From NCBI RefSeq assembly GCF_030028105.1, contig NC_092374.1:177778057-177842056 (forward strand): DNA of 64,000 bases, read 5' to 3'. The notes under the pieces were generated by a model. That model did no database searches and was not told where the DNA came from. It saw only the letters and a program-made list of their open reading frames with translations. The first letter of the stretch is position 1; each line of letters starts with the position of its first letter. The stretch is from Mobula birostris. Its lineage: Eukaryota. This document shows, piece by piece, positions 1,292 to 42,465 of this stretch. The position numbers and the translations under genes were made by a program.

Positions 1292-3006
1292 ATGGGAAGG
1301 CCTCTAATTCTATACGTGAAGGAGATTTGCTATCCGATACTAGCGACGTTTGGCATCCCGGGTAAATTTGCCTATACCTTTCATTGGGTTGCTGCACTGT
1401 ATCAAGGTTATCAAGGGCTCTGTGATCTNNNNNNNNNNNNNNNNNNNNNNNNNNNNNNNNNNNNNNNNNNNNNNNNNNNNNNNNNNNNNNNNNNNNNNNN
1501 NNNNNNNNNNNNNNNNNNNNNNNNNNNNNNNNNNNNNNNNNNNNNNNNNNNNNNNNNNNNNNNNNNNNNNAGCGGTAAGGTTTAATAGAAACCTGATCAG
1601 CATATGCGAATAGATTGTTGCTGGATTCTTCTGAAGGGAGCCGAGTTTTTGCCTCGTATTAGAAGGCGGAAGGATATGTTTCTGCGCTGCATGACATTAT
1701 TTTTGGCAATGAATTTCTCACAATGCAGCCTGCTATGTTGTTATCAGAAGCCCTTTTATTAAGCTTTATTAGCTTTATTTGTTACGTGCATCGAATCATA
1801 CAGTGCATAGTGTCCTTTGAGTCAACGACCAACACAGTGCATGCAGAATGCTGCCCACAAGCGCTGCCATGCTTATTGCGCTCATAAGAGCTCATAACTT
1901 ACTAATCCTAACCCTTAATTCTTTTTCATGCTGCCTCATAATGAATGTTGTTACTTTCTTGAAAAACACTTCGACAGAATGCCTGCAGTAATTTGTCTCC
2001 ATATTTGTTAACGTGAAGCTAGCCTCGTTCACCACTGACACATTTGGCGGTTGTTTAATTGGTCATTATGTTGCTTACTTTCTTTCTGGTTCTTTCAGCG
2101 AACGTGGTGACGGCTGTGATACTCTACCGGGGAAAGTGCGGTCTCTCCAAAGGAATCACGCGGTACATGATGGCGATGGCGATCTCAGACCTGTTCGTGC
2201 TCATTGTTCACGTGTTACTCCGAGAAATCTACACTTACTATACACCTGGTTCTTTCCCCTCCCTCAGCGCAGTGTGCCGTTCATATGTACACTTGCGACT
2301 CCACAGCCTAGACTATTCCGTCTGGCTAACTGTGTCCTTTACCTTTGACCGTTTTGTCAGCATTTGCTGTCCAAAAGTGAGGCACAGATATTGCACGGAG
2401 AGGACGGCCACCGTGGTGATTGTGCTTTTGTGCATGCTGAGCTGCTTAAAATACATTCCCTTTCACTTCATGTACGAGCCTAGTTACACCATTGACAACG
2501 TGAACTGGGGGTGTCGGCCGAAATCCGTATACTTCACCTCCAACTGGTGGGTGGCTTTCACCTGGATGTGCAGCATATCTGTGTCGTTACTCCCCTTCGC
2601 TATCATTCTTCTCCTTAACGGACTGACGGTCAGACACATCATAGTAACCAGCAGGGTCCGACGTCGCCTAAAGGGCCAGGATGGTAAAGACAGCGAGACA
2701 GAAAGTCGGCGCAAGTCCATAGTTTTACTCTTCACAGTTTGCGGCACTTCAGTACTACTCTGGGCGACGGCATCGGTAACTAACATCTGTACTCGAGTCA
2801 CAATTAACTTTCAGGGCAAGGATCTCACAAGTCCCTCTACTGTAGCCAATGAAGTGGGAATACTGCTTATGCGTGTAGGCGTAGGAGCCAACACGTGTAT
2901 CTACGCAATGACCCAAAGTAAATTCAGACAGGAGCTGAAGAACGGGATTAAAAGTCTAAATTGTTTCAGCATTATACCTATGTATCGGACATGGCAGTCA
3001 GCCTAA
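1292..3006 (+). CDS. GPR139/GPR142-like class A orphan GPCR, gene A copy 1; exons 1292-1361 and 2099-3006; 325 aa
   Basis: Exon 1 encodes MGRPLILYVKEICYPILATFGIP with donor G|GTAAAT. Acceptor ttctttcAG|CG restores GIP-A-N (TM1) across a phase-1 intron. Motifs: MAISD (TM2), SVWLTVSFTFDRF (TM3), ECL2 WGC, LPF..LLN (TM5), LLWAT (TM6), NTCIY (TM7), helix 8 SKFRQE. No stops or frameshifts. Confidence 0.92.
1429..1570. other. 142-nt run of N in the gene A intron (copy 1)
   Basis: Directly visible; same length and flanks as 40888-41029. Confidence 0.99.
1762..1915 (-). mobile_element. Degenerate SINE-like 3' fragment in the gene A intron
   Basis: (AGCTTTATT)n tail followed by sequence I recall from elasmobranch SINE 3' regions; recognition from memory only. 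Confidence 0.4.
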
Positions 3007-3046
3007 AGCTGGAGACCGACTAGAAGACTGACACAGTTTATCGTAT

Positions 3047-3620
3047 TTCAAAGTCAAATAAATTGATTATCGAAGTACGTATGTCACCATATACCGCCCT
3101 GCGATACATTTTCTTGCAGTCAGTCACAATGGATCAAAGAAATACAGTGGAATTAATGAGAAACTGCACATAAAGAAAAACTGATAAACTCTGTAAATCC
3201 AAAAAAAGAAACAAGTATTAGTAATAATAAATAAATTTTAAAGAATGATATCGAGAACGTAAGTTGTAGAGACCTTGAAAATTAGTCCATAAGTTGCATT
3301 CAATGATTATTCTAGTGTTGTGGTGTGTGAGAATGTCTGTGCTGGTCCAGGGCTCTTTCTGTTCCTATAGTTTGTGGTGTGGTATCTAAGGCTCGTATAC
3401 ATTCCTCCTGATGGTAGCAGCAAGAAAGGAGTTTAACCCAGATGCCGGGTGTTTTTGATGAGCACTTGCTTGCTTGTGGCAGCACTCTTTGATCAACTGT
3501 GGTCATAGCTGTTTCCTGTGATGAATTGGCCTGCACCACCCAATTGCTGTATTTTGTTTCTCTTTAGGCATTGGTGTTTCCATATTAGAGAATGTTGCAA
3601 CCAGTTAGGATGCTCTGTCC
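3047..3620 (-). mobile_element. Old Rex1/Babar- or L2-like non-LTR 3' fragment
   Basis: The minus strand resembles the degenerate 'LLPSGRRYRSLRT' C-terminus plus a TTTGA(C/A)-type tail; it begins ~40 bp after the gene A stop. Confidence 0.55.
3057..3062 (+). promoter_or_regulatory. Candidate poly(A) signal of gene A
   Basis: First AATAAA, 51 nt after the TAA stop. Confidence 0.4.
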
Positions 3621-3629
3621 AGGAACCTT

Positions 3630-3974: not shown

Positions 3975-5277
3975 ATACTTTTTGATTTGAATATACAGAT
4001 TTTAATGGTAGATTTTTAATTATTAAAGGAGTAATCTGTAACAGAAAAGTTGTTCTGGTCAATTTGTACGGTCCTAACTTAGATGATCCTTCTATTTTAC
4101 GAAATGTATTTGCATTACTGCCTGATTTAAATGAATATATGTTGATAATGGGCGGAGATTTTAACTGTTGTTTAAATGCTTTGATTGACAAGAGCTCAAC
4201 CAAATCAGCGACTTCCAAATCGCTCCGCATCACTTATTAACTCCTTTTTAACCGATATTGGATTGATTGAACATGGAGATATTTATACCCTGATGACAGG
4301 GAATATTCTTTTTTTCACATGTTTGTAAAAATATTCGAGGATCGATATATTATAGTCGATCCTCGCTTCTTGCCTAGTGTTAAGAACTGTGAATATGACG
4401 CTATTGCAATATCTGATCATGCACCTCTGTGTTTGTCTTTCGAATTTGATGATGTCATTCTTGCCCGCCCACCATGGCGTCTGTGTCAGACACTACTGCA
4501 GAACACCGACTCTGTCAGCTTCATTGAAACCAAGATAAAAGTTTTTTTTCTTTCTAATGATATAGGGGGGACGTCTAACTTAATTATATGGGATATTTTT
4601 AAAGCATTTTTACGTGGTCAGATCATTTTTTATTTCTCTAAGCTTAAAAAACAGACTAAAGTAGAATTAGATAAGATTTCAAAACAAATTAAAGACTTAG
4701 ATAATATTAATACGAACCCCCCCCCCCAATAATGATTTATTCAAACAAAGGTTGGAACACCAATCACAATATAAGTTACTAAGCTAAAGAGACAATTTTA
4801 TATGTTTGGAGATAAAAATTAACAAACTGATTCCACTTCAATTAAAAACGGCCAGAGCCAAAAGACAAATTTTGAAAATCCGTAGGAAAGATGGTACCCT
4901 GCTTTGGAAATATGAAGAAATTAATAGGGTTTTTCAAGATTTTTATAATGAACATTATAAATCTCAATTTCCAGTAGATTCTTCTAAAATGAATGCTATC
5001 TTACGAAAGATTGCTTTTCCTCACGTTTCGGTTGAATATCAATAAAATATTGATGTCCAAATTACTGAAGCCGAAATTCATAAAGCTTTTTTTTCAATGC
5101 AATCTGTTAAGGCCCCTGGACTTGATGGCCACCCTGTAGAAATTTATAAAAAATTTGGAAAAATGCTTTCTTCGTATACGTTGGAAAAGTGTAAGGACTC
5201 TTTTGAGAAAGGTGATTTACCCTCTACTTTTTATGAGGCTTCTATTTCTTTAATTCCTAAAAAGGAAAAGGATCCTA
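3975..5277 (+). mobile_element. L1-clade LINE ORF2 fragment (APE endonuclease, linker, RT start), disrupted
   Basis: VNLYGPN, IMGGDFNC, ISDHAP, PWRL, IWDIFKAFLRGQII, KAPGLDG, ISLIPKKEKDP; several stops and frameshifts; truncated at the CR1 junction. Confidence 0.88.
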
Positions 5278-8200
5278 CGTGCTACGTGCCAGTGAGGGTA
5301 GGAATAGGATGCTCTGGAGGATGAACAAGTGGCTGAGGAACTGGTGTAGGGAGCAGGGTTTCAGATTTCAGGATAATTGGGACTTCTTCTGGGGCAGGTG
5401 GGACCTATACAAGAGAGACGGGTTACACTTGAACTACAGGGGGACCAATATCCTTTCAGAGAAGTTTGTTAATGCTATTGGGGGGGCTTTAAACCAGATT
5501 TGCAGGGGGATGGGAACCACAGTACCAGAGATGACAGTGTGGCTGGGGTGAAAATAAATGATGTTAAAAGTTCAAGCAAATCCGCTAATAGAAAGGTTGT
5601 GACTGGTGGTAAAATTCTTCTGAGGTGTATATATTTCAATGCAAGCAGTATTGCGGGGAAGGCGGATGAGTTGAGCGCGTGGATTGACACGTGGAATTAT
5701 GACGTTGTAGCAATTAGTGAAACTTGGCTACAGGAGGGGCAGGACTGGCAGCTTAATATTCCAGGCTTCCGATGTTTCAGATGTGATCGAGGCAGAGGAA
5801 TGAAAGGTGGGGGAGTGGCATTGCTTGTTAGGGAAAATATTACAGCAGTGCTCAGGCAGGACAGATTAGAGGGCTCGTCTACTGAGTCCTTGTGGGTGGA
5901 GCTGAGAAACAGGAAAGGTATGGCCACAGTAGTGGGATTGTATTACAGACCACCCATTAGTCAAAGAGGATTGGAAGTGCAAATCTGCAGAGAGATAGCA
6001 GGCAACTGCAGGAAACATAAAGTTGTGGTGGTAGGGTATTTTAATTTTCCATACATTGATTGGGTCTTCCATACTGTTAGGGGCCTAGATGGTTTAGAGT
6101 TTGTAAAATGTGTTCAGGAAAGTTTTCTAAATCAATATATAGAGGGAACAACTAGAGGGGATGCAATATTGGATCTCCTGTTAGGAAATGAGTTAGGACA
6201 AGTGACAGAAGTCTGTGTAAGGGAGCACTTTGGTTCCAGTGATCATAACACCATTAGTTTCAACTTGATCATGGACACCGATAGATCTGGTCCTAGGGTT
6301 GGAAAAAGGCCATTTTTGAAGAAATGAGAAAGGATCTAAAAAGCATGGATTGGGACAGGTTGTTCTCTGGTATGGATGTGATCGGTAGGTGGGAAGCCTT
6401 CAAAGCAGAAATTTTGAGAGTGCAGAATTTGTATGTTCCTGTCAGGATTAAAGGCAAGGTGAAGAGGAATAAGGAACCTTGGTTCTCAAGGGATATTGCA
6501 ACTCTGATAAAGAAGAAGAGGGAGTTGTATAATTTGTATAGGAAGCAGGGAGTAAATAAGGTGCTTGAGGAGTATAAGAAGTGCAAGAAAATACTTAAGG
6601 AAGAAATCAGGAGGGCTAAAAGAAGACATGACGTTGCCTTGGCAGTCAAAGTGAAGGATAATCCAAAGAGCTTTTACAGGTATATTAAGAGCAAAAGGAT
6701 TGGAAGGGAGAAAATTGGTCCTCTTGAAGATCAGAGTGGTCGGCTATGTGCGGAACCAAAGGAAATGGGGGAGATCTTAAATAAGTTTTTTGCGTCTGTG
6801 TTTACTAAGGAAACTGGCATGAAGTCCATGGAATTAAGGGAAACAATTAGTCAGATCATGGAAACTGTACAGATCGAAAAGGAGGAGGTCCTTGCTGTCT
6901 TGAGGAAAATTAAAGTGGATAAATCCCCGGGACCTGACAGGGTGGTCCCTCGGACCTTGAAGGAGACTAGTGCTGAAATTGCAGGGGCCCTTGCTGAAAT
7001 ATTTAAAATGTCGCTGTCTACAGGTGAGGTGCCGGAGGATTGGAGAGTGGCTCATATTGTTCTGTTGTTTAAAAAATGATCGAAAAGTAATCCGGGAATT
7101 TATAGGCCAGTAAGTTTAACGTCGGTAGTAGGTAAGTTATTGGAGGGAGTACTAAGAGACAGAAGCTACAAGCATTTGGATAGACTGCGACCTATTAGGG
7201 AGAGTCAACATGGTTTTGTGCGTGGTAGGTCATGTTTGACCAATCTATTGGAGTTTTTCGAGGAGGTTACCAGGAAAGTGGATGAAGGGAAGGCAGTGGA
7301 TATTGTCTACATGGACTTCAGTAAGGCCTTTGACAAGGTCCCGCATGGGAGGTTAGTTACGAAAATGCAGTCGCTAGGTATACATGGAGAGGTGGTAAAT
7401 TGGATTAGACATTGGCTCAATGGAAGAAACCAGAGAGTGGGGGTAGAGAATTGCTTCTCTGAGTGGAGGCCTGTGACTAGTGGTGTGCCACAGAGATCAG
7501 TGCTGGGTCCATTGTTATTTATCATCTATATCAATGATCTGGATGTTAATGTGGTAAATTGGATCAGCAAATTTGCTGATGATACAAAGATTGGAGGTGT
7601 AGTAGACAGTGAGGAAGGTTTTCAGAGCCTGCAGAGGGACTTGCACCAGCTGGGAAAATGGGCTGCAAAATGCAAATGGAGTTTAATACAGACGAGTGTG
7701 AGATATTGCACGTTGGAAGGACAAACCAAGGTAAAACATACAGGGTTAATAGTAAGGCACTGAGGAGTGCAGTAGAACAGAGGGATCTGAGAATACAGAT
7801 ACAAAATTCCCTAAAAGTGGCGTCACAGGTAGATAGAGTCGTAAAGAGAGCTTTTGGTACATTGGCCTTTATTTATCAAAGTATTGAGTATAAGAGCTGG
7901 AATGTTATGATGAAGTTATATAAGGCATTGGTGAGGCCGAAACCAGAGTATTGTGTTCAGTTTTGGTCACCAAATTACAGGAAAGATATAAATAAGGTTG
8001 AAAGAGTGCAGAGAAGATCTACAAGGATGTTACCGGGACTTTAGAAACTCAGTTACAGAGAAAGGTTGAATAGGTTAGGACTTTATTCCCTGGAGCGTAG
8101 AAGAATGAGGGGAGATTTGATAGAGGTATATAAAACTATGATGGGTATAGATAGAGTGAATGCAAGCAGGCTATTTCCACTGAGGCAAGGGGAGAAAAAA

Positions 8201-8497
8201 ACCAGAGGACATGGGTTAAGGGTGGGTGGGGGGAAAGTTTAAAGGAAATATTACGGGGGGCTTCTTCACACAGAGAGTGGTGGGAGTGTGGAATGAGCTG
8301 CCAGACATGGTGGTAAATGCGGGTTCTTTTTTTAACATTTAAGAATAAATTGGACAGATACATGGATGGGAGGTGTATGGAGGAATATGGTCCGTGTGCA
8401 GGTCAGGTGGACTAGGCAGAAAACGGTTCGGCACAGCCAAGAAGGGCCAAAAGGCCTGTTTCTGTGCTGTAGTTTTTCTATGGTTTCTATGGTCTCT
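5278..8497 (+). mobile_element. CR1 LINE, 5'-truncated (ORF1 esterase C-terminus plus disrupted ORF2 APE-RT)
   Basis: DGLHLN (ORF1); ISETW, SSDHN, KSPGPD, DFSKAFDKVPH, SGVPQ, FADDTK (ORF2); (TTCTATGGT)n 3' tail; stops at 7077 and 8042 plus frameshifts. Confidence 0.95.
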
Positions 8498-10812: not shown

Positions 10813-12278
10813 CTATTTTTTTTTACCTTTTGTTCCTTTACAAACCCTTCAGTTAAGTTCAAATTCATGAATATAATTCCTTTAATCATATGCAGTGTGA
10901 TGCCTCTTATTTCATGGCACTGATTTGTAACAGGGTAGCAAATGAAATGGTATCCACACAAACGGAGGATTGGGGTGGAGGAACCGTTTCAATCTCACGG
11001 TTTTAGCAGAACCGGAGTGTGTATTCCCTGGACATGCGCAGCCAGGGACACCACCGGGGTTTCACCCAGATTGGATGGGAGGAGTAAATTGCTAAATGTG
11101 GAAACGTACTATTTGTCCATTGTGTGACTGTCAACAAGTGTCAGGTATTTATGAACACTTGTAAAGCATTATGAGCGGAGGCGGTTTACCTTCAAATTTA
11201 GACCATTCTTAAATGCTGTCAGCGACTGCTTCCACCGCACGGTCGATTTGGGCATTCTGCTTACGCAGCACTGTCTGGATGAAAACCCCACAGTTATATC
11301 CAAACGATATCGCGTAACACTAATCCTAAATATGTGTCCTCCATCTGTATAAACCCACAACGAAATATATCGTACATTCCACACTGTCTATAACCTTACT
11401 GAATGTACAGTATACAACGTAGTCATGCCTTCTGAATGTTATTTCTTTTTCTGCTGTATTGCTCTGAAAAGAGAAAGGGTGTCAGCTTAGATTAAATTAA
11501 AGCCAACGACACGATGCTGTGTGAGGTCTATTGGTTTACCTCCAGTACATAGTCTTCTGTGTGCTCAGTAAGGTTTTGGGAAATTACTGGAGGACCGAGT
11601 AGGGGAAGGTGAGCGGAGCTAAACACAGAAATACTTTTTTCAAGATCGGGAACAGATATATTTTACCCGAGTATCGGTGAGTGTGACATGCAAGGTCGCC
11701 TCGGAAATGGACTGGTATTTATGTTTCATGCGCCATGTTAACAATTTTCTAGTCGGGAGGGATATTTTTTATTACAACATATTCATTGATTTCTGAGAAT
11801 AAAATCAGGCCTATGAGGTGTTATGTAGTTAAACCAGTTTTCCCAGTCTGAATCAAATTGTTCCAGTTTATGGTTAACAGATGCTGTTATCTTCTGCATT
11901 TTGTAAATGTCCATTTGAATTCCCATCCATGCATTTAAAGTTGGGCTCTCCTGTGATAGCCATTTCCTGGAAAGAGTCTTTTTTGCTGGTCACCAGCCAC
12001 ATATTCATTGCTTATTTATCACTTTTCAGCTATTCTTGAGGTACTGCATATACCCAAAATATATGGTCTTACTTTCTAAGGGCATTTTACACTTAAAGAT
12101 ATCTTGATAGGGCATTGTGTATCCCACTCCAATAATCTTTGATAACGGGGAATTCCCAGAAAATATGATAATCGTTTGCATTTTGATTTCCACAATTACT
12201 CCAGCAAACAGGGAGCTTACTATCATCCAAGTTGCTGGTGAACGCAGCAGGCCAGGCAGCATCTCTAGGAAGAGGTAC

Positions 12279-12314
12279 AGTCGACGTTTCGGGCCGAGAC
12301 CCTTCGTCAGGACT
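12279..12314 (-). ncRNA. Minimal type I hammerhead ribozyme in the Penelope pLTR
   Basis: Minus strand reads AGUC-CUGACGA-A-GGG(UCUCGG)CCC-GAAA-CG-UC/GACU: intact core, stem I AGUC/GACU, stem II GGG/CCC, palindromic ACGU stem III. Confidence 0.8.
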
Positions 12315-14295
12315 AACTGAAGGAAGAGCTAATAAGAGATTTGAAAGTGGGAGCAGGAGGGGGAGATCCAAAACGATAGGAGTAGACAGGAGGGGGAGGG
12401 ATGGAGCCAAGAGCTGGACAGGCGATTGGCAAAAGGGATATGACAGGATCATGGGACAGGAGGCCCAGGAAGAAGGAACAGCGGGAGTGGGGGAAACACA
12501 GAGGATTGGCAAGTGGTATAGTCAGAGGGACAGAGGGAGAAAAAGGAGAGAGAAAGAGAGAGAATGTGTGTATATAAAGAAATAACGGATGGGGTATGAG
12601 GGGGAGGTGGGGTATTAGCGGAAGTTAGTGAAGAATGTTCATGCCATCAGGTTTGAGGCTACCCAGACGGAATATGAGGTGTCGTTCCTCCAACCTGAGT
12701 GTGGCTTCATCGTTACAGTAGAGGAGGCCGTGAATAGACATATCAGAATGGGAATGGGATGTGGAATTAAAATGTGTGGCCGCTGGAAGATTCTCCTTTC
12801 TCTGTTGGAGAGAGCGTAGGTGCACAGCGAAACGATCTCCCAGTCTGCGTCGGGTCTAGCCAATATATATAAGGCCACATCGGGAACACCGGACGCAGTA
12901 TATCACCCCAGCCAACTCACAGATGAAGTGTCGCCTCACCTGGAAGGACCGTCCGGGGCCCTGAATGGCGGTAAGGGAGGAAGTGTAAGGGCATGTGTAG
13001 CACTTGTTCCGCTTACAAGGATAAGTGCCAGGAGGGAGATCAGTGGGGAGGGATGGGGGGGACGAATGGACAAGGGAGTCTCGTACGGAGCGATCCCTGC
13101 GGAAAGCGGGGGTGCGGGGAGGGAAAGATGTGCTTAGTGGTAGGATCCCGTTGGACGAGGCGGAAATTACGGAGAATAATATGTTGGACCCGGAGGCTGG
13201 TGGGGTGGTAGGTGAGGACAAGGGGAACCCTATTCCTAGTGGGGTGACGGGAGGATGGAGTGAGAGCAGATGTGTGTGAAATGGGGGAGATGCGTTGAGA
13301 GCAGAGTTGATGGTGGAGGAAGGGAAGCCCCTTTCTTTAAAAAAGGAGGACATCTCCCACGTCCTGGAATGAAAAGTCTGCTCCTGAGAGCAGATGCGGC
13401 GGAGACGGAGGCATTGCGAGAAGGGGATGGCATTTTTGCAAGAGACACGGTGAGAAGAGGAATAGTCCAGATAGCTGCAAAGAGTCAGTAGGCTTATAGT
13501 AGACATCAGTAGATAAGCTGTCTCCAGAGATAGAGACAGAAAGATCTAGAAAGGGGAGGGAGGTGTCGGAAATGAACCAGGTAAACTTGCGAGCAGGGTG
13601 AAAGTTGGAGGCAAAGTTAACAAAGTCAACGAGATCAGCATGCGTGCAGGAAGCAGCGCCAATGCAGTCGTCGAGGAAGCGAAGGAAAAGTGGGGCACCG
13701 ATACCAGAATAGGTTTGGAACATAGATTGTTCCACAAAGCCAACAAAAAGACAGGCATAGCTAGGACACATACGGGTGCCCATAGCTACACCTTTAGTTT
13801 GGAGGAAGTGGGAGGAGCCAAAGGAGAAATTATTAAGAGTAAGGACTAATTCTGCTAGACGGAGCAGAGTGGTGGTAGAGAGGAACTGATTAGGTGTGGA
13901 ATCCAAAAAGTAGCCGAAAGCTTTGAGACCTTCCTGATGGGGGATGGAAGTATATAGGGACTGGACATACATGGTTATAATAAAGCGGTGGGGGCCAGGG
14001 AACTTAAAATCATCAAAAACTTTAACAGCGTGAGAAGTGTCACTTTCTCTCTCACTCCTTTTTCTCCCTCTGTCCCTCTCACTATCCCCCTTGGCCATCC
14101 TCTGGGTCCCCCCACCCCCAACTTTTCCTTCTCCCTGGGCCTCCTGTCCCATGATCCATGATCCGCACATATCCCTTTTGCCAATCACCTGTCCAGCTCT
14201 TGGCTCCATCCCTCCCCTTCCTCTCTTCTCCTATCATTTTGGAACCCTACTTCCCCCTCCCACTTTCAAATCTCTTACTAGCTCTTCTTTCAGTT

Positions 14296-14331
14296 AGTCC
14301 TGACGAAGGGTCTCGTCTTGAAACGTCGACT
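14296..14331 (+). ncRNA. Second hammerhead motif in the inverted pLTR, with weakened stem II
   Basis: AGTC-CTGACGA-AGGGTCTCGTCTT-GAAACGTC-GACT; stem II GGG/CUU relies on G-U pairs. Confidence 0.65.
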
Positions 14332-15649
14332 GTACCTCTTCCTAGAAATGCTGCCTGGCCTACTGCGTTCACCAGCAACTTTGATGTGTGTTGCTGGAAT
14401 TTCCAGCATCTGCAGAATTCCTCCTGTTTAGATTACTATCATAATGGGATTTCTGACAGGGTGCAATAAAATACCTTATCAAGTTTTTCCATCCGAACTC
14501 CCTCTATTTCTGTGAGCTGGTAAACTTCCATTGATACTTCCATATTATTTTCCATTCTTCCTCAGATATAATTATTCCTCCTTCCTTCTCCCATTTTGTT
14601 TTAATGTATGAAGACGAACATATTTTAAGATTTGACCAACCCTTATACACGCTTGAAATGATTCTACTACCGTTATCTGAATTATATACTTTTCTAAATA
14701 ATGCTATCAAACATGTACTTGCCTTGGTTACATTTTAATCGTCCTACTAACATACTGTCGCAACTGTAAAAACCGATAAAAGTCTTGTTTTCCTAATAAG
14801 TGTTTCTCTTTAAGCATTTTAAAACTGAACAGTGTTCCATCTTTCATTATATTGCAAGAGCTGTTATTCCATTGGCTGCCCAGTCTTTAAATATAGCATC
14901 CAGCTTATTCGGCGTAAAAACCGAGTCATAAGCACACCATTTAAGAATTACAATATCTCCCTCTAGTATATAATCTTTTATAACAATTTCCCATATTTTA
15001 ACAGTCCATTTGACCCATGGGTTATCAATGGTATTTGTGTACTTTTGTAGATTGTTATCAGCCAACATTGTCTGTATGAGGATGGAAGTATCCCCTCATC
15101 AATGGTATTCCATTGAGCCTCATGTGATGGGTTGCACCAACGTATAACAGCTCTCAACTGTGCTGCAAAATAGTAATCTCTAAGAGAAGGTAGGTCCCAT
15201 CCCCCCACCCCTGTCCCTGGCAAATTGGAATGTTTTGAGCCGTACTCTAGGCCTTTTTTCTTGCCATATATAACTTAATAACATTTTGTTCCATTCATTG
15301 AATTGATTTTGATTAATCTCTATTAGTAGGGTCTGAAAAAGATATAATAGTCTGGGAAGTTTATTCATTTTAATTGATTCAATCCTTGAACTGAGACTAA
15401 AAAAGATTAGGTTCCATCTTGTTATATCTTCCTTAATTTTCTTATATATATGCTGGTAATTGCATTCTGATTATTTTGCCAAATCTTTAGGTATAATGAT
15501 GCCCAAATTTTTAAAAGACTCTGTCATGCCCAGGGATATCTACTTTCAATTTCTGTACAACTAGGGTTTGTCTCCAGTTGCTACCGGGTAAGGTTATGGA
15601 ATACTAAAAATAGAAAGACTGCTGCCTCTATTTTAGGATTTCTACCCGC

Positions 15650-27842: not shown

Positions 27843-28640
27843 ATAGTCATAGTCATATTTTATTGAGCCCGGGGGAAACTGGTTTTCCCCATAAATAATA
27901 AATAAATAGTTGCACCATAAATAATAAATAGTAATAGAACCATAAATAGTTAAATAGTAATATGTAAATTATGCCAGTAAATTATGAAATAACTCCAGGA
28001 CCAGCCTATCGGCTCAAGGTGACTGACCCTCCAAGGGAGGAGTTGTAAAGTTTGATGGCCACAGGCAGGAATGACTTCCTATGATGCTCTGTGCTGCATC
28101 TCGGTGGACTGAGTCTCTGGCTGAATGTACTCCTGTGCCCACCCAGTACATTATGTATTGGATGGGAGGCATTGACCAAGATGGGATGCAACTTAGACAG
28201 CATCCTCTTTTCAGACACCACCGTCAGAGAGTCTAGTTCCATCCCAACAACATCACAGGCCTTACGAATGAGTTTGTTGATTCTGTTGGTGTCTGCTACA
28301 CTCAGCCTGCTGCCCCAGCACACAACAGCAAACATAATAGCACTGGCCACCACAGACTCATAGAACTTTCTCAGCATCATTCGGCAGATGTTAAAGGACC
28401 TCAGTCCCTCAGGAAATAGAGTCGGTTCCGACCCTTCCTGTAGACAGCCGCAGTGTTTTTTGACCAGTCCAGTTTATTGTCAATTCGTATCCACAGGTAT
28501 TTGTAATCCTCCACCACGTCCACACTGACCCCCTGGATGGAAACAGGGATCACCGATACCTTAGCTCTCCTCAGGTCTACCACCAGCTCCTTAGCCTTTT
28601 TCACATTAAGCAGCAGATAATTCTGCTCACACCATGTTGC
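27843..28640 (-). mobile_element. Rex1/Babar-type non-LTR retrotransposon 3' fragment
   Basis: KAKELVVDLRR, YKYL.IRIDNKLDW, RLYFLR, FYESVVASAIMFAVVCWG, RKSFLPVAIKLYN; AATAAA followed by a (TATGAC)n tail. Confidence 0.85.
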
Positions 28641-29249
28641 ACCTGCATTGGATTCTCTGATCAGGAACTCTGGTTTATTTGTTTCTCAACGAAATATTGC
28701 CTTCACGATTGTCACTGCTTGAACTCTGACGAAGGACAATCCTACCTCGTCCGTACTTTTCCTGAACTACACTGGTCTGGTATCCGTGCCTATTAGATCA
28801 AAGCTTCTTTTCATTAAAAATTTGAAGAGCAAATCCATTTCTCTCGCACAACTTCCCCCATTTCTCACCTGTCCAAGGCTAAGTCAGATTATTTATTACA
28901 TGAACGCCGTGTCTGCCCCAGAGAAAACATATCAGGATTTGCGGCCTATTACCCATTGCTCAATATGTTTCGATATATGATATCTAAATGATAACTTCTT
29001 GTGAGACATAGAGACCATCGGCTGGGTGCAGAAAGATACTTGAAAGGTGTAGAGGCGACAGGGTTATATCGTGTATAATGTTTAAATTCTCAATGTGATT
29101 GCGACTCCTTTCGTGGAAAGGGTCTCAATGGGGAAGAATTTGACTGGTATATCCAGAAGCCTTACTTGCTACAATATGGAAATAGTCCAGCCAAGACTAA
29201 TGATACAAACACTTATGTGTGGAAATGAACATTTGCAGTTGATCAAAAT

Positions 29250-32897: not shown

Positions 32898-33830
32898 ATG
32901 GTGGTGGCTTCCGTTAGTCTCGCGAGACCATGAATCTGCAACTGGAAAGTCTTGCTTCAGTCTGTGTTAGAGCAGCGTCTGCTTTGGCTGTAGAGTCCTA
33001 CACGGGAGTGACAGTCTTGGCTGCAGCGAATGCACTTGAGGGCACTGTCCTCCAGTGTTGTCTTGGTCCTGTTTTTCCGATGAGTGCCCTTTTCATCAGC
33101 AGCAAGCCTCACTTTTTCTTCTCCTCTTTTTTAGATCTCTGCGTAGTTCTAGCCTCCAGTGAGAGCGATCGCTTGCGATGTCCTCCCACAGCTCGACGTT
33201 CATTTTCAGTGACTTCATGTCTCTCTTGCAAACGTCATTCCAACGAAGATGGGGCCACCCTTGTGCTCCCTTGCCGGAGGGCAGTTCCCCGTACAGCAGG
33301 TCTTTCGGGATCCTCCCGTCTGACATGCGGTGTACGTAACCCAGCCAGCGGAGACGGCATTGTTGGAGCAGGGTGAAGAGGCTGGGTATCCGGGCGCGGG
33401 CCAGGACCTCATTGTTGGTGACTCGATCAGTCCACGTGATATCCATGATGCGTCTCAGGCTGCGAAGGTGGAAAGCGTTGAGACACCGCTCTTGTCTGTA
33501 GTAGAGGCTCCAGGTCTATCTGCCGTAAAGCAGTGTGCTGAGAAGGCAGGCCCTGTAGACTGCAACTCTGTTGACAGTCGTCAGTTCTCTGTTCTCCCAG
33601 ACTCTCTCTGAGGCTGCCCGTCCGATCCTTCTATTGATCTCGGGGTCTAGGGAGAGGCTGTCCGTGATGGTGGAGCCAAAGTATGTAAACTCGTGAACTA
33701 CCTCCAGCTCGTAGTTGTTGATGGTAATGGCAGGGGAGTGCACAACGCTTTGGCCCAACACGTTGGTTTTCTTCAGGCTAATGGTCAAGCTGAGGTCCTG
33801 GTAGGCTCCTGAGCAGCTGTCTATGAGGCG
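32898..33830 (-). mobile_element. RTE-clade LINE 3' fragment nested in the old CR1
   Basis: LTISLKKT, FTYFGSTI, RRIGRA, STLLYG, ITWTDRVTNNEVL, RLRWLGYVHRMSDGRIPKDLLYGEL; candidate TSD TTGAA (32893-32897 and 33831-33835). Confidence 0.9.
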
Positions 33831-35749
33831 TTGAAGTAATTCAACTGTAAAAGAGAGTTAGGGGTAGAAATAGGACAAATAGAATATTGCTACGAGATAT
33901 TGTAATCAGAGACGCAGAGATGGCAAAGGAAATGAATGCGTATTTTTCATCAGTCTTCACAAACGAAAGCATCTGCCGTATACCGGATATTTAGGAGTGT
34001 GAGAGAAGTGAAGTATGTGCAGTGAAAATTACGACTGAGAAGGATTTTGAGAACCTTAATGGTCTAAGTGTGGATAAATCTCCTGGACCTGATGGAACGC
34101 ACCCTCGGGTTCTGAAGGAAGTTGCTGGGGAGACTGCGAAAGCATTAACAATGATCTTTCAAGAATCAGTAGATTCTGGCATTGTATTGGATGGTTGGAA
34201 AGTTGTAAATGCTGCTCCGCTATTTAGAATTTGTGGCAGCAGAAAGAAAACTGTAGACCTGTTAGTCTGATATCAGTGGTTCGGAAGTTGTTGGAATCGA
34301 CTGTACGGGATGAGGTTTCGGAGTATCTGGAGGCATATGACAATAAAGGCCAAAGCCAGCATGGTTTCCTGAAAGGGAGATCCTAACTGACTAACCCATT
34401 GCAATTTTTTTGAGGAACTTACAAGCAGGATAGACGAAAGAGATGTTATAGATGTGGTGTACTTGGATTTTCAGAATTTGACAAGGTGCTGCACGTCAGG
34501 TGGTTAGCATGATAAGGTCCCGTGGAATTACTGAATAATTATCGGAATGGATGCAGCATTGGTTGTTCGGCACAAAACAGAGTGGGAATAAATGGATCCT
34601 ATCCTGGCTGGCTGTCAGTTACCAGTGGAGTTCCACAGAGGTCGGTGATGGGAATGCTGCTTTTTACGATGTATTTCAATCATTTGGAGTACGGGATCAA
34701 AGGGTTTGTGGCTGAATTTGACGATGCTACAAAGATAGTTGGAGGAGCGGATAGTGTTCAGGAAACGGAGAGTCTGCAGTGAGACTTAGATAGTTCAGGA
34801 GAATGGGCAAAGAAGTGGCAAATGAAATAAAATGTTGGAAGATGTATGACATGTACTCTGGTGGAAGAAATAAACGAGCATGCTATTACTTAGATGGGGA
34901 GAGAATTCAAAATGCAGAGATGCAAAGAGACTTGGGACCCCTTGTGCATGGTAAAACGGTTTTCTCCAGGTTGCATCAGTAGATAAGAAGACAAATGTAA
35001 TGTTGCTATTCATTTCTAGATGTACAGAATATAAGATCAGGGATGTGATGTTGAGGCTCTATAAGGCACACGTGAGACTACACTTAGAATATTGTGTGCA
35101 GGTTTGGGCTCATTATTTTAGAAAGGAGATACTGACATTGGAGAGGGCTCAGAGAAGATTCACGAAAATGATTCCAAGAATGAAAGGGTTACCGTTTGAG
35201 AAATCTGGCGGCTCTTGGGCTGTATTCCCTGTAGTTCAAAAGAATGAGGTGGGTGGGGAGGATTCTCATAGAAGCATTCAGAATGTTAAAAGGCCTGAAC
35301 AAATTAGATATGGCAAAGTTATTTCCCATGGTATGGGACTCCAGGACGAGAACCGCTTTTAAGACGAAGAAGAGAATTCAGACAAGCTGAAACCATTCAT
35401 TTCAACTGTTCATATGCTTTAAAATGGAACTTCAAAGAATCCTGCTGCATGCCGAAAAATGAGTGCTCCAGAAGTTGATGAACGTTAAGTGACTCTCATT
35501 TGTATACTGAACTCTGTATACTTACTTACTCAGCAACAGGTTGAAAGGTGAAGGCGGGTGCTGTACGGAGTCAAACTGACCAAAACAGCACCAAGCTGCA
35601 CACGTAGCTTACATTGATTCAGATGTTCTCTACCCGGGTTGAAAGGATCCCGCCAAGACGATGGGCTCTAAGGCAAAAAACAACTTGCTTGTCGTGATCA
35701 GGGATTATAATGCCCGTAATTGCGTTTCCTGAGGGGTAAAACGCAGGTG

Positions 35750-36694: not shown

Positions 36695-39600
36695 TGTAAC
36701 GTGATCGGCAACAATGAATTATCAATTGAAGCAGGTTTTATAAACAAACATAAACGTTTATTAAACTCTGCTCAACAAATAGCGAAAAGTATTCCGTGAT
36801 TAACTTCCCATTCCTCACTTGCAGGAACTGTAGGTGATCGCCACTTCCTCATTAATAATTCCTTTTCAAAATAATATCCTAATGGCACCTTCTCAATTTC
36901 ACTATCTGGAAGAGCTTGGTCGTTTAATTTGATAATATCAGGGTATCTACTCTGATCTGCTATAATATCCTTCCGAGATAAAGATAAATCTTCATGTCAG
37001 ACTTACTACAATAATCTTGTCAAACAATGAAGGTAAGAAAGTTTCTGACACATCCTTAAAATTTGAACCCCGAGTTGAACAGTCATGGGTAACAGACCCA
37101 TCCTGCACATCAATCTTTTTAACCATAGATTGGGTTACAACACAGGAAGAAATTGTGTTAGAATCCATCTTTGTTTTCTCGGAAATGGGCTTTATTGTCA
37201 AATGCACTGCAGGAAAAACGTGTCCATCTGCTATGTTATTTCCTAACAACAGAAAAACATCATTCACGGGCAAACTGGGTTGTAGTCCTACTTTAACAGG
37301 CCCTGTAATTAACCCTGACCTTAAATTTACTTTATGCCAATGTACCGGCATAAGGGCACTCCCAACTGCTCGTATATAGCTTACCGCACCAATGTCAGAC
37401 TCATCACTAAACTTTAGAACACTGTCTAATATTTGTGATTGAGAAGCTCCAGTATCTCTGAGTATTTTTATTGACACAGGAGTGGATCCCTCTTGCAAGG
37501 ATACAAATCCCTCCATTATAAAATGTTCATATGCCCTCTTAACCTGGTCAGACTCTAACGAAACTTCATTTGTATTTATCGAACTCTGTGGATTTACAGG
37601 AGTTTCAATCTGCTGCACACAAGCATCCGGGTCTGCTTCCTTCTCTTTGTTTTTCAATCAATAGCAGTTAGCTATTACATGCCCAGGTTTATTACAATAA
37701 TTACAAATAGGACCAGAATATCTTTCCTTCACGTGACTCCCTTCATTCCTACCTTTCTCACTAATTTCTGATCTAATTTCTGGTTTACCTTGACTCTCTG
37801 TGCTATTATTCCTTTTAAAAGTTCTACCTGGAGAATATTTACTCTTATGAATTCAAGCATACTCATCAGCTAATTTAGCAGACTCCTGTAATGTATCAGT
37901 GTCCCTCTCATTTAAGTATGCCCTTACTTCAGCAGGATTGTTCCTTTTAAATTCCTCCAGTAAAATCAACTCTTTTAATTTATTATACTCCCCATTCACA
38001 TTTTTAGAGGAAACTCATCTCTCAAAACGCACAGATTTATCGTAGGTAAATTCCACGTAAGTTTTGTCCACGGATTTCTTCAAATTTCTAAATCTTTCTC
38101 TATAAGCTTCTGAACCAGTTCATACCCTTTCCGTATATGCTGCTTCACAATATCATAATCAAGTGCCTGTTCAGCAGTTAAAGCTGTACACACTTGTTGT
38201 GCCTTACCTCTAATTATACTTTGTAACATCACTGGCCGTTGATCTTTCGGCCACCCTGAACTCAAAGCATCAATTTCAAAATGTTGGAAATATTTGTCTA
38301 CTTCTATCTCATTAAACGGAGGAGGCAAAATAACTTCTCGACAAGCAAAAAACTGTTTGATAGAAACAGAGGACTGATTTTCCATCCTTAATTTCTCCAC
38401 CTCCAACTCAAAATTCCTCTGCTTATTAGCTTCTGTTTCTTTAAATTCCGTTACTTTATTTGCCTCTCTTTCGGCAATTTCCGCTTTAAATTGTTCAAAA
38501 TTTATCTGTTCAAGATGTAACTGCATTTCCAGTTTACTCATTGGAAACCTCCCTAAGACCTCATCCTCAACCTTTCCCGAAATTTCCCTTGCTCCGCGAT
38601 TTTCTCTGAATTTCGGGTTTCGTTGTAACCTTCGTATTTACTTTAAGATTCCAACTTTCTAGCAATCTCGGATACATCACTCTTTCTCGCCTTCGCACAT
38701 AACTCGGGGTCCGGAGATTCCATAAAGTCGTCAATATTCATTGCTGCCGAATATCACCCACAGACCAATCAAACAAAAGAACTGGGTATTTCCCTTTTCC
38801 AAATCAAATGATAATTAAACAAGCACTTAAGCTCAAAATCGGAAGATCCCGGGCGAGCTCCCAGTTTATGTCACTTGATCGGAATCAATGAATATAAATT
38901 GAGGCATGTTTTATAAACAAACATAAACATTTATTAAACTCTGTTCAACAAATAGGGAAAAGTATTCAAGCGACTAACTTAACCGGAAGTTAACTGCTAT
39001 ACAGAAACTCTCGAACAGCTCTTTAAAGGGTAAATACGAAAACAGTTCTTAAAGTGGTAAATTCGAATGTCCAAGCAATCCACACAGTCAATAAGGATGG
39101 ACTTCTCTGGAAACAGATTTATTCAAACACGTGACGTTACTGCTGATTCTCCAAAGGATTCATGATGAAGGAAATAATACGTGTTAAAGGAACTGACCTT
39201 TTCCTGGCAAGCAGACACTGCAGAACTTCCCTGCTCTTGCAGGAGGTATCTCAGATGCAGGTCGCTATATTGTGAACGAATCCTCAATAAGGTCGATCCT
39301 TTATAAAGACGCCGAACGACTCAAACTTTATTCCGATCCTTCAGGTTCCCGTCCTTTAATAAAGTCTTCTCTCTCCAATACTACAGTCAAGGGAAGATTA
39401 TAGATGCAACACGCAAACCTGGCAGCAATTGGCGAACTGCCAGCACCAATCTTTGCACCTTAAAATAGAAAAGAAAGCTCCGTTTCAAAACGAAACTGCG
39501 TCATAACAAATACGCAGCATAACGGTGTAGCTAACGAAGCAAACAACAACTCAACTGAAACCAGACTAAATACTAACTGCGTCACACCAGGGGTCTCTGT

Positions 39601-39728
39601 TATATACCTGTTATGAACAGGTCATCATGTGACCTCACACTGGCGGGAAAATTACATCATGCGACCTCCACAGGACTATTACATCATGCTCATAAGACAG
39701 TCACAAGATACCCACGGGGAATCTAACA
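36695..39728 (-). mobile_element. Internally deleted Gmr1-like Gypsy LTR retrotransposon (5' LTR 38869-39728; gag, CCHC knuckle, protease; 3' LTR remnant 36695-36806)
   Basis: TG...CA termini; 4-bp TSD CTAC (36691-36694 and 39729-39732); the LTR remnant aligns with 38869-38980; gag PPFNEIEVDKYFQHFE, knuckle CNYCNKPGHVIANC, protease ILRDTGASQS, then LMRKWRSP..EEWEV. Confidence 0.9.
38846..38863 (-). promoter_or_regulatory. Primer-binding site complementary to tRNA-Pro
   Basis: TGGGAGCTCGCCCGGGAT, 5 nt from the LTR end; 16/18 match to the canonical tRNA-Pro PBS TGGGGGCTCGTCCGGGAT. Confidence 0.88.
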
Positions 39729-40750
39729 CTACGCATTGATGGGAGACAGAAAGGATGACAGATTGTTTGGATTACGTGACATTGGAAAACGATATCTTCA
39801 TACCAGAGAGTAGTTGGCCACGCAACTGGAATATGAGGGGTTATGGAATTATTATTTTTTTAAAACATCCTTGCACTTTTGCTCATTCTGATTCCTGGAC
39901 TGCTTACTGAACTGCGAGGAAACACAATATCGGAATGAACAGCAATCCACATTTGAGAGGCAACGTTAACGTTCCCGTGACCTTGCAGTTAAATTAAGAA
40001 TTTCGCAATTCCATTTTTCTTCTCCTTTTGTTTTCATCCCAGCAACATCTTTTTCTGCTTCAGATTTCCAGCGGTTCTTCTTTGGTCTAACAGAGGGATC
40101 TCATGGCCACAGCAAAGCTTTCGTTTTCCCTCCTCCTATTTTCAGTTACCTCATACTAAAATATCTGCGATCAACTATTTAATTTCTCTTAATTCTGAAG
40201 AATACAATCAATATGAAATATTAATTGTTCCTCTCTCCATAGAGGCACAGCACTAGATGTATTTTAACTATTCTTTCACTTCCAAATTTTTCTTTTTTTC
40301 TTTTAGCTAAATATAGTAGTCTTTATCTTAACATAACCTAAATATCTAATGACAGCATTGGTGGGAGAGTTACTTTGTTCCCTGGACTGAGAAACAAGAC
40401 TTTCATCAGAAGCGTCAAGCTGACACCCACCACATTTGCTTAAAAACCATCACGGTGAATACAAATTTTGATAATTCACCATAGAATTAGAAATATCAGT
40501 AATAATTGAATCGAATAAATATGCTATCGCTACCTGTTCTGTGTGCATGCAGTATTCCTGAGTCATAAGTGAATTTTTTCAATTCTGTGAAACAAAAATG
40601 TTTGTTCAAGAAGCTATGAATAATTTTGTTGTTCTCTCACTCGCCGAATTCACTAGAGGATTCGGTTTGCGCGTGTTTTAATGAAAATTTGTGCAGAGCT
40701 ACTTGCTCATACTCTCCCAGGTTTGCAGCCCTTACTGCGATTCTTCTGGA

Positions 40751-42465
40751 ATGGGAAGGCCTCTAATTCTATACGTGAAGGAGATTTGCTATCCGATACT
40801 AGCGACGTTTGGCATCCCGGGTAAATTTGCCTATACCTTTCATTGGGTTGCTGCACTGTATCAAGGTTATCAAGGGCTCTGTGATCTNNNNNNNNNNNNN
40901 NNNNNNNNNNNNNNNNNNNNNNNNNNNNNNNNNNNNNNNNNNNNNNNNNNNNNNNNNNNNNNNNNNNNNNNNNNNNNNNNNNNNNNNNNNNNNNNNNNNN
41001 NNNNNNNNNNNNNNNNNNNNNNNNNNNNNAGCGGTAAGGTTTAATAGAAACCTGATCAGCATATGCGAATAGATTGTTGCTGGATTCTTCTGAAGGGAGC
41101 CGAGTTTTTGCCTCGTATTAGAAGGCGGAAGGATATGTTTCTGCGCTGCATGACATTATTTTTGGCAATGAATTTCTCACAATGCAGCCTGCTATGTTGT
41201 TATCAGAAGCCCTTTTATTAAGCTTTATTAGCTTTATTTGTTACGTGCATCGAATCATACAGTGCATAGTGTCCTTTGAGTCAACGACCAACACAGTGCA
41301 TGCAGAATGCTGCCCACAAGCGCTGCCATGTTTATTGCGCTCATAAGAGCTCATAACTTACTAATCCTAACCCTTAATTCTTTTTCATGCTGCCTCATAA
41401 TGAATGTTGTTGCTTTCTTGAAAAACACTTCGACAGAATGCCTGCAGTAATTTGTCTCCATATTTGTTAACGTGAAGCTAGCCTCGTTCACCACTGACAC
41501 ATTTGGCGGTTGTTTAATTGGTCATTATGTTGCTTACTTTCTTTCTGGTTCTTTCAGCGAACGTGGTGACGGCTGTGATACTCTACCGGGGAAAGTGCGG
41601 TCTCTCCAAAGGAATCACGCGGTACATGATGGCGATGGCGATCTCAGACCTGTTCGTGCTCATTGTTCACGTGTTACTCCGAGAAATCTACACTTACTAT
41701 ACACCTGGTTCTTTCCCCTCCCTCAGCGCAGTGTGCCGTTCATATGTACACTTGCGACTCCACAGCCTAGACTATTCCGTCTGGCTAACTGTGTCCTTTA
41801 CCTTTGACCGTTTTGTCAGCATTTGCTGTCCAAAAGTGAGGCACAGATATTGCACGGAGAGGACGGCCACCGTGGTGATTGTGCTTTTGTGCATGCTGAG
41901 CTGCTTAAAATACATTCCCTTTCACTTCATGTACGAGCCTAGTTACACCATTGACAACGTGAACTGGGGGTGTCGGCCGAAATCCGTATACTTCACCTCC
42001 AACTGGTGGGTGGCTTTCACCTGGATGTGCAGCATATCTGTGTCGTTACTCCCCTTCGCTATCATTCTTCTCCTTAACGGACTGACGGTCAGACACATCA
42101 TAGTAACCAGCAGGGTCCGACGTCGCCTAAAGGGCCAGGATGGTAAAGACAGCGAGACAGAAAGTCGGCGCAAGTCCATAGTTTTACTCTTCACAGTTTG
42201 CGGCACTTCAGTACTACTCTGGGCGACGGCATCGGTAACTAACATCTGTACTCGAGTCACAATTAACTTTCAGGGCAAGGATCTCACAAGTCCCTCTACT
42301 GTAGCCAATGAAGTGGGAATACTGCTTATGCGTGTAGGCGTAGGAGCCAACACGTGTATCTACGCAATGACCCAAAGTAAATTCAGACAGGAGCTGAAGA
42401 ACGGGATTAAAAGTCTAAATTGTTTCAGCATTATACCTATGTATCGGACATGGCAGTCAGCCTAA
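40751..42465 (+). CDS. GPR139/GPR142-like GPCR, gene A copy 2; exons 40751-40820 and 41558-42465; 325 aa
   Basis: Same splice sites as copy 1; translated protein identical in the ORF track. Confidence 0.92.
40888..41029. other. 142-nt run of N in the gene A intron (copy 2)
   Basis: Directly visible. Confidence 0.99.

Follow-up and report, generated by a model that had tools for sequence, protein, structure and literature searches.

The closest described relatives of the genes reported here appear to lie in the branch of class A (rhodopsin-like) G protein-coupled receptors (GPCRs) containing GPR139 and GPR142, which are single-copy, in contrast to the dozens of copies found in the elasmobranch family. 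True GPR139 orthologues retain 70% identity from human to zebrafish (PMC7318219). In the literature, protostome FMRFamide, sex-peptide (MIP) and proctolin receptors and nematode Srw receptors are grouped with GPR139/142 (PMC12208981). Srw-type and FMRFamide-receptor-like clusters resemble the elasmobranch family by model features only, and invertebrate chemoreceptor blooms may have arisen from the same GPR139/142 branch.

Cartilaginous fishes have large olfactory organs. Their olfactory receptor repertoire has been reported as the smallest among vertebrates, with a mean of 43.8 genes (20-62) across the four canonical families of olfactory receptors (PMC10869828), and GPCRs in the group have been said to show "relative paucity" (PMC8455134). 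The chemoreceptor surveys consulted considered canonical families only (e.g. PMC10869828).

The window analysed here, a 64-kb stretch of the Mobula birostris genome, carries three two-exon genes, A, B and A', whose structure agrees with the initial annotation, including a first coding exon of 70 nt:

Gene A, coding exon 1: positions 1292 to 1361, forward strand; 70 nt with a GT donor, encoding the N-terminus and the first half of TM1.
Gene A, coding exon 2: positions 2099 to 3006, forward strand; AG acceptor, encoding the remainder of the 7TM domain; total 325 aa.
Gene B, coding exon 1: positions 26536 to 26605, reverse strand (26605-26536).
Gene B, coding exon 2: positions 24538 to 25415, reverse strand (25415-24538); total 315 aa.
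Gene A', coding exon 1: positions 40751 to 40820, forward strand; same sequence as A.
Gene A', coding exon 2: positions 41558 to 42465, forward strand; same sequence as A.

The intron of gene A is in phase 1 and falls inside the codon immediately before position 1.50; its only stop codon is terminal, and its orthologue in Mobula hypostoma (P0001) is 96% identical. A' is A displaced by 39,459 nt, with an identical CDS. For gene B, the 70-nt length of exon 1 depends on the choice of start, since an in-frame ATG at 26692, 87 nt upstream, begins the RefSeq model; this long form is the RefSeq Mobula birostris protein P0021, named "probable GPR139". GPR139 too has two exons (PMC7318219), a likeness in exon number. 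The earlier estimate that A and B are about 70% identical was reproduced exactly on recounting, with 96 of 315 ungapped positions differing (69.5% identity).

Assignment to class A rests on concordant features: A and B both match Pfam 7tm_1, helix 8 follows seven long helices in an AlphaFold2 model of B (mean pLDDT 85), and the DRF motif, the C3.25-ECL2 pair and NTxxY are present, B being without N1.50. Sequence and model together show that the family shares a very short N-terminus, seven helices, DRF, W6.48 and NTxxY, and that the cysteine at 3.25 and another in ECL2, which presumably form a disulphide, are invariant.

These three genes are almost certainly members of a class A family that has expanded in elasmobranchs, as judged from sequence comparisons. 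Of 2235 candidates, up to 1364, clustered at 90% identity, matched at E<=1e-5. Among the best 120 of the 1364 matches, 119 were named, and all 119 came from sharks or rays, representing 19 species; one of the 120 listed matches (P0105) was left out of the analysis. Horn shark contributed at least 41 proteins among the matches listed, on 17 scaffolds and with pairwise identities of 40-96% (median 59%), and sawfish contributed 10, all on a single 19.9-Mb scaffold. At 50% clustering, 95 representatives had E<=1e-30. A family profile (A1) built from 84 of the 123 named members fitted 129 of 135 representatives better than the profile of either low-copy relative described below; these 135 were taken from 147 new unnamed 50%-cluster representatives, the 12 most distant being omitted, which deprived the trees of an outgroup. 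Growth has proceeded by tandem duplication into clusters on many scaffolds, where old conserved members, some of them one-to-one orthologues with short branches across sharks and rays, stand beside species-specific blooms. The lineage-expanded cartilaginous-fish family initially proposed is therefore upheld by its many paralogues, its blooms and its diversified pockets; neither a mere handful of paralogues nor one-to-one orthology with a known receptor was found.

The relation to GPR139 is more distant than the automatic label on family genes implies, and that label is misleading. GPR139 is the best PDB match of A and of the family profile (74 bits for the profile, versus 55 for the next PDB chain), and GPR142 is absent from the PDB profile matches. 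Profile scores thus support placement of the family in the wider GPR139/GPR142 branch, with GPR139 as its nearest characterised receptor. A fold search with the B model recovered generic peptide-type class A receptors without singling out GPR139, which ranked 39th at 18% identity. Gene A scores just 31 bits against human GPR139, and the four residues of the Trp/Phe site (F3x33, H5x43, W6x48 and N7x38) occur together in 0 of 124 members, three of them in 3 of 124. At these positions A reads L/C/W/I and B reads I/C/W/V, so that only the tryptophan is kept in either; P6.50 and R6x51 are likewise absent. Given these losses, the low score and identity, and the dozens of paralogues, orthology with GPR139 was rejected. 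The description "GPR139-like" holds for the wider branch and fails in the stricter sense of orthology, the likeness consisting of the class A fold, the short N-terminus and W6.48. Sensing of Trp or Phe by homology was also rejected, because the activation residues are not kept, and the broader suggestion of amino-acid sensing by analogy with GPR139 loses its support with the pocket.

The closest relatives found are instead two low-copy, non-mammalian gene groups, designated X and Y. Group X (P0216) comprises low-copy "probable GPR139" genes in coelacanth, sharks, ray-finned fishes, amphibians and reptiles, and may correspond to a GPR210A/B subtype described by Rinne et al. 2019 (PMC6504862). 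It resembles the elasmobranch family in length and in the TM1, ICL1 and TM7 motifs (profile-profile score 369; about 28% identity to family members), but has about one gene per species and a conserved pocket. The X gene that sharks themselves carry falls outside the expanded clade. Some group X records are read-throughs filed under the name TMEM183A. Group Y (P0221), found as low-copy "probable GPR139" in amphibians and sturgeon, scores slightly higher than X (379) and has a similar ICL3-TM6 stretch; it differs in having one gene per species and a near-invariant pocket, and falls outside the elasmobranch clade (0.91 support, aLRT 82; unrooted). Sequence comparisons make Y the most likely bony-vertebrate counterpart, by a small margin over X. 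The trees were unrooted and without an outgroup, with 20 X and 8 Y proteins in one and 8 X and 4 Y in another, drawn from more than 100 X matches and 21 Y matches; unnamed matches from the search behind group X were left out. Neither group is accepted as orthologous to A and B, which do not nest with either in the trees and do not share their pockets.

Variation within the family is concentrated in the predicted ligand pocket. With 22 pocket positions, 19 taken from the GPR139 site (PMC5430874) and 3 added, the ratio of pocket to intracellular diversity is 2.03 over all 124 members; taken singly, horn shark gives 2.55, Heptranchias 2.59 and sawfish 2.38; permutation P values range from 0.0002 to 0.02 and are optimistic, since family members are not independent. 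By comparison, orthologues of group X, whose overall divergence is comparable (0.41 vs 0.39-0.45), give a ratio of 0.69, and group Y gives 0.29. A and B themselves differ at 9 of 22 pocket positions versus 17 of 101 intracellular ones. One shark-to-ray orthologue set retains 18-20 of 20 pocket residues, versus just 6 of 20 in common between two horn-shark paralogues of one clade, both sets being chosen from the tree by eye and counted by hand. Among paralogues, then, the cytoplasmic face is near-constant and the pocket differs, whereas orthologues keep the same pocket. This pattern makes it probable that the family is a functional receptor repertoire diversified for ligands.

The alternative of neutral copy-number growth in repeat-rich regions, with most copies redundant or decaying, draws on the density of broken retroelements at the locus and on the departures of A and B from conserved sites. 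Out of 80 near-invariant columns each deviates at 5, where the family median is 2 and 26 of 124 members deviate at five or more. B has an open reading frame but carries Gly at 1.50, where 108 of 111 members with a residue have Asn, and a frameshift after helix 8 shortens its tail by about 10 residues; its Hemitrygon orthologue has neither change. Upstream of A lies an out-of-frame ATG which, if it is transcribed, would start a frame of 129 codons. Because of these departures, A and B in particular may be decaying. For the family as a whole, however, neutral growth is very improbable: A and B diverge with an omega of 0.23 (dS 0.87, dN 0.20; bootstrap 0.16-0.31), the 80 near-invariant columns persist over 124 members, variation is placed non-randomly, and orthologues are conserved across sharks and rays.

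Variability of the pocket combined with constancy of the cytoplasmic face is also seen in the OR, TAAR, V1R, T2R and FPR/MRGPR families. These resemble the elasmobranch receptors in their clusters, species-specific blooms and compact genes as well, but the elasmobranch family is part of none of them and stands on a different branch of class A. Membership of the OR, TAAR, V1R or T2R families was rejected, Pfam giving 7tm_1 plus weak Srx/PRA1 matches only (Srx in A, E 1.8e-5); Srw (PF10324) had no match in A or B. The pocket pattern marks any multi-ligand paralogue set, immune and somatosensory ones included.

With many clustered, lineage-expanded paralogues whose pockets vary among paralogues and are kept in orthologues, a chemosensory use of the family is plausible, at slightly under an even chance. 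The repertoire would most likely detect small molecules or short peptides from the surroundings, and do so in epithelia of a sensory or surface kind, such as chemosensory cells of the nose, taste organs, skin, gill or gut. The transmembrane pocket of each member would bind a different ligand, while signalling would run through one G protein common to all, conceivably Gq/11 by analogy with GPR139, with a PLC/Ca2+/TRP response as output. Shark olfactory neurons are all Go- and TRPC2-positive, and Go would be the alternative should the receptors sit there. In a catshark organ atlas, which takes V2Rs as the chief odour receptors, the 50 leading genes listed for the "brain and olfactory epithelium" library include no GPCR (PMC11979771); this list lends the family no support, though sparsely expressed receptors would escape it.

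A repertoire for immunity or barrier defence, in which peptides from microbes or damage are detected by receptors on leukocytes, mast-like cells or nociceptors, much as by mammalian FPRs or MRGPRs, would show an identical pocket and cluster pattern. It would fill the functional gap left by MAS1 and related receptors, reported absent from cartilaginous fishes (PMC8455134), and known relatives of the GPR139/142 branch are peptide receptors (PMC12208981). It is nevertheless considered unlikely, as pockets kept between shark and ray orthologues suit stable ligands more than a pathogen arms race. A role in which brain, gut or reproductive tissue uses the family to sense endogenous peptides or metabolites, subdivided by duplication and comparable to that of GPR139, GPR142, X and Y, is consistent with the CNS role of GPR139 as nearest solved relative, with the activity of GPR142 in gut and pancreas (PMC7318219), and with the one-to-one conservation of some members. 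Yet receptors for endogenous ligands retain their pocket, as X and Y do, the Trp/Phe residues are lost here, and dozens of divergent pockets per genome with species-specific blooms are hard to fit to a fixed set of hormones, which renders this explanation distinctly doubtful.

On the chemosensory reading, a more far-reaching proposal can be advanced only tentatively: sharks and rays may own a chemoreceptor family derived from a GPR139-like ancestor that is still low-copy in bony vertebrates, equal to or larger than the canonical olfactory receptors combined, and hidden under the "probable GPR139" label. If so, much of the receptor diversity that is missing for shark smell, taste or chemosensation by the skin would come from this family; even with an immune or endocrine role, so large a GPCR expansion in elasmobranchs would be new. 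A description of so large a set in one shark, with pockets diversified like those of a sensory repertoire, was not found in the literature searched. A full-text search of main articles, chiefly from outside the subscription journals, found no paper on an elasmobranch "GPR139" expansion; the searchable parts of the skate genome, whale shark and nurse shark spleen supplements (the last short and uninformative) hold no mention of the family, and the main text of a mobulid genome preprint has no GPCR passage.

The local duplication of A adds little to the importance of these findings. It belongs to a long direct repeat whose period is about 39.46 kb and whose two copies have at least 24.5 kb in common:

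Repeat copy 1: positions 1 to 24534, forward strand.
Repeat copy 2: positions 39461 to 64000, forward strand; 99.8% identical to copy 1, ending with the window.

The copies differ by 44 substitutions (0.18%) and 6 internal indel events. The window ends 3 bases short of the place of B's stop codon in copy 2, so that the fourth gene, B', would lie beyond it and is inferred. Either a recent duplication or an artefact of assembly may have produced the repeat. A false duplication, with two haplotypes or misassembled reads placed in tandem, is a separate question from the role of the family and is a substantial possibility, somewhat short of even. A divergence of 0.18% over 24.5 kb lies within the allelic range of vertebrates, the A and A' coding sequences do not differ at all, no unique junction between the copies is visible within the window, and CpG transitions make up 0 of the 44 substitutions versus 24 of 233 in the window's old repeat pairs (Fisher p=0.019). 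Against this, no gap separates the copies, runs of N occurring only at matching places inside each; the transition/transversion ratio of 0.91 is indistinct from that of the old pairs (1.14; p=0.52); the differences are unevenly spread (p=0.017), which is compatible with gene conversion or allelic mosaics alike; and tandem arrays are usual in this family. The substitution spectrum gave no decision. In the tree, the A/B split is older than Mobula and common to other rays, and a Mobula-specific origin of the pair was rejected. The initially proposed very recent amplification of the pair is weakly founded, because the repeat is not separable from a false duplication, B' is beyond the window's end, and A and B separated long ago, in a split found in other rays too and not a local one.

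The remainder of the window consists largely of retroelement remains:

Broken LINE: positions 5261 to 8493, forward strand; GDSL-like ORF1 remains, endonuclease and RT.
LTR-retrotransposon-like remains: positions 36695 to 38980, reverse strand; flanked by two 112-nt direct repeats, 87% identical; no Pfam match.

The second element is presumed to be an LTR retrotransposon from the appearance of its ORFs, and a 70%-identical relative of the LINE lies at about 17697-21254. A tblastn search of the 64-kb window found no additional family gene, relic or pseudogene, its weak matches being retroelement pieces within mis-annotated ends of database proteins, and an Rfam search of positions 1-41000 gave no matches. 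Among 94 other ORFs scanned, none matched a host-gene family in Pfam, and the 7 that matched were all of retroelement type (RT, endonuclease, GDSL-like ORF1 and one ALKBH8_N fragment). Tandem repeats in the window are trivial.

Splicing of the reading frames in the window recovers three GPCR genes, A, B and A', each with the architecture described in the initial annotation: a 70-nt first exon with a GT donor, joined in phase 1 to a long exon.

1292-1361 and 2099-3006, + strand: gene A, 325 aa
26605-26536 and 25415-24538, - strand: gene B, 315 aa
Gene A shifted 39,459 bases downstream, + strand: gene A', identical to A

Between A and B, 96 of the 315 ungapped positions differ, exactly as an earlier hand count had it, with a dS of 0.87, a dN of 0.20 and an omega of 0.23. 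Both match Pfam 7tm_1, and an AlphaFold2 model of B, built on an alignment of 84 sequences, shows seven long helices plus helix 8 (pLDDT 85) and retrieves class A receptors in general in a structure search. RefSeq lists the genes under an automatically assigned name: when translation begins at an in-frame ATG lying 87 nt further upstream, B is letter for letter the 'probable G-protein coupled receptor 139' of Mobula birostris, and A is matched at 96% identity by a Mobula hypostoma protein that bears this name. No additional family gene or relic was found within the window; among 94 other ORFs scanned against Pfam, 7 match, all to retroelement-type domains only, and an Rfam scan of positions 1-41000 gave no match. 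Remains of Penelope-like appearance, with RT-like and GIY-YIG-like ORFs and no Pfam match, occupy 12224-14386 and are bounded by an inverted pair of 87% identity. Positions 36695-38980, between 112-nt direct repeats, hold a possible decayed LTR retrotransposon, and LINE fragments of RTE-like and Rex-like appearance lie near 33099-33857 and 28006-28685, respectively.

Positions 1-24534 and 39461-64000 form a direct repeat of 99.8% identity, whose unit boundary lies outside view. The window ends 3 bases before the expected stop codon of B', the putative fourth gene that the initial annotation places just past the window end; B' itself is not within the window. The repeat data fit both a real recent duplication and a false one. 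That A and A' reflect an assembly artefact is a serious possibility, somewhat short of even: their coding sequences are identical, the copies are just 0.18% apart (44 substitutions along with 6 internal indel events), a value within the range of allelic differences in vertebrates, and CpG transitions account for 0 of the 44 substitutions but for 24 of the 233 seen in old repeat pairs (p=0.019). However, the copies adjoin without a gap, the ts/tv ratio is ordinary, and tandem arrays are usual in the family. Differences between the copies cluster at 15500-17500 versus 54960-56960, with only 4 substitutions in the first 8 kb. The family-level result is independent of whether the repeat is real or false.

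At that level, the finding is real, sizeable and bigger than the window implies. A search with the long exon of A (E<=1e-5, 90% identity clusters) gave 1364 clusters among 2235 candidates, of which the top 120 were examined, 119 of them named; the other 1244 may include non-members. All 119 named matches among those listed are from sharks or rays, in 19 species. Clustering at 50% left 95 representatives at E<=1e-30, and 129 of 135 representatives examined fitted the family profile better than those of groups X (P0216) and Y (P0221), two sets of relatives also called 'probable GPR139'. Among the matches listed, the horn shark accounts for at least 38 of the 119 (at least 41 proteins with further search, spread over 17 scaffolds at a median identity of 59%), Heptranchias for at least 22, and the sawfish for at least 10, all on one scaffold. 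Phylogenetic trees resolve many deep lineages and conserved shark-ray orthologue sets, together with species-specific blooms in Pristiophorus, Heptranchias, horn shark and sawfish. The A/B subfamily, which also has shark members, has multiplied in batoids. Since A pairs with P0001 of M. hypostoma and B with P0025 of Hemitrygon, with sawfish genes adjoining each (internal support modest), the A/B split is older than Mobula and, as far as these sequences indicate, probably predates the sawfish split. In Heterodontus francisci, one scaffold of 74.47 Mb carries 12 proteins of the family that represent several deep lineages, the A/B subfamily among them, and is a candidate for the ancestral cluster. 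In a full-text literature search, with subscription journals and most supplements outside its scope, no published account of the expansion was found, and it is apparently undescribed so far.

Despite their names, A, B and the family are ruled out as GPR139 orthologues. Human GPR139 is the best relative of solved structure, clearly for the family profile (74 bits vs 55 for the next) and weakly for A (only 31 bits), and true orthologues are reported to keep 70% identity from human to zebrafish (PMC7318219). Both low-copy groups are nearer to the family than GPR139 is: X occurs in coelacanth, sharks, ray-finned fishes, amphibians and reptiles, and Y, among the matches listed, in amphibians and sturgeon only, with no mammal among the named matches listed for either. 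Profile-profile scores are 379 for family-Y, 369 for family-X and 288 for X-Y, and the elasmobranch family forms a single clade excluding both groups (support 0.91; aLRT 82) in trees built without an outgroup, so that no sister order is given. Our guess is that X or Y corresponds to GPR210A/B, fish and coelacanth subtypes near GPR139/142 named by Rinne et al., who make no mention of sharks (PMC6504862).

The ligand pocket was compared by mapping positions via offsets from helix anchors, with generic residue numbering (e.g., 1.50, 3x33). Across 124 members, none keeps all four residues F3x33, H5x43, W6x48 and N7x38; the residues are L, C, W and I in A, as against I, C, W and V in B. In a GPR139 mutagenesis study, these four are reported to be highly important in activation, the Trp/Phe site is that of the tested agonists, and F109L alone abolishes measurable Trp/Phe potency (PMC5430874). 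Amino-acid sensing, a possibility raised in the initial annotation, is therefore unsupported as far as sensing of aromatic amino acids by descent is concerned. Paralogue diversity at 22 pocket positions, whose placement derives from homology modelling of a distant receptor, is 0.35-0.62 vs 0.15-0.30 at the cytoplasmic face (ratio 2.0-2.6), an excess over random TM sites with permutation P values of 0.0002-0.02 that are optimistic because the sequences are related. The same ratio is 0.69 in X orthologues, whose overall divergence is similar to that of the family, and 0.29 in Y. Shark-ray orthologues share 18-20 of 20 pocket residues, and paralogues within one genome as few as 6 (hand count, sets chosen by eye). 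As an observation on their own account, X and Y are conserved low-copy GPR139-like genes, both mislabelled 'GPR139'; X spans sharks to snakes and is present in read-through models named TMEM183A. Invariant charged pocket residues are D3x29, R6x51 and D7x35 in X and K6x51, K6x55 and E6x58 in Y, which suggest that both may have fixed endogenous ligands. For the family itself, endogenous signalling appears rather improbable.

The picture is of compact two-exon class A receptors in which the G-protein face stays constant and the pocket changes; their genes duplicate in clusters and are under purifying selection. Neutral accumulation of copies is very improbable. Judged by its sequences, the family works like a receptor repertoire and not like a set of GPR139 orthologues. 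A variable pocket over a constant face marks multi-ligand repertoires generally, not smell specifically, and OR, FPR and MRGPR families all behave as repertoires. Each member would take one ligand class, and all would share one transducer, either Gq/11 as in GPR139 or Go if they reside in shark olfactory neurons, reported to be all Go- and TRPC2-positive (PMC10116579); signalling would end in Ca2+/TRP output. The chance that the family detects external chemicals, in sensory or surface epithelia, is close to even, although a catshark atlas names no GPCR among the 50 leading genes of its olfactory library and attributes the sensing of odours to V2Rs (PMC11979771). None of the sources searched gave an expression value for a family member. 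A role in immunity or nociception, comparable to that of FPRs or MRGPRs, with which the reported absence of MAS1 relatives from cartilaginous fishes (PMC8455134) would agree, seems unlikely but not negligibly so. The boldest form, a shark- and ray-specific chemoreceptor family at least as large as all canonical olfactory receptors together and derived from a GPR139-like ancestor, can be put forward only tentatively. A chemosensory role, if true, would raise the importance of the expansion.

The reading frames of A and B are open, yet not pristine. At 80 near-invariant columns, A and B each depart at 5, against a family median of 2. Position 1.50 of B (window 25413, - strand) is Gly in place of the Asn seen in 108 of 111 members. 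Beyond helix 8, a frameshift (24490-24560, - strand) leaves B ending in two Cys, whereas the orthologue tail runs on in a different frame. The Hemitrygon orthologue lacks both changes, which possibly represent early decay. Upstream of A, an out-of-frame ATG at 1222 would start a frame of 129 codons across the spliced mRNA; in several relatives the same stretch (1222-1291, + strand) codes for an N-terminal extension that is in frame, and it can be aligned with the sequence preceding B. For several family members, the database models appear to carry incorrect first exons drawn from retroelement remains. Positions 35661-35729, in a repeat-derived region, match the annotated N-terminus of P0001, the M. 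hypostoma orthologue of A. The introns of A and A' contain an N run of equal length at a matching place in each.
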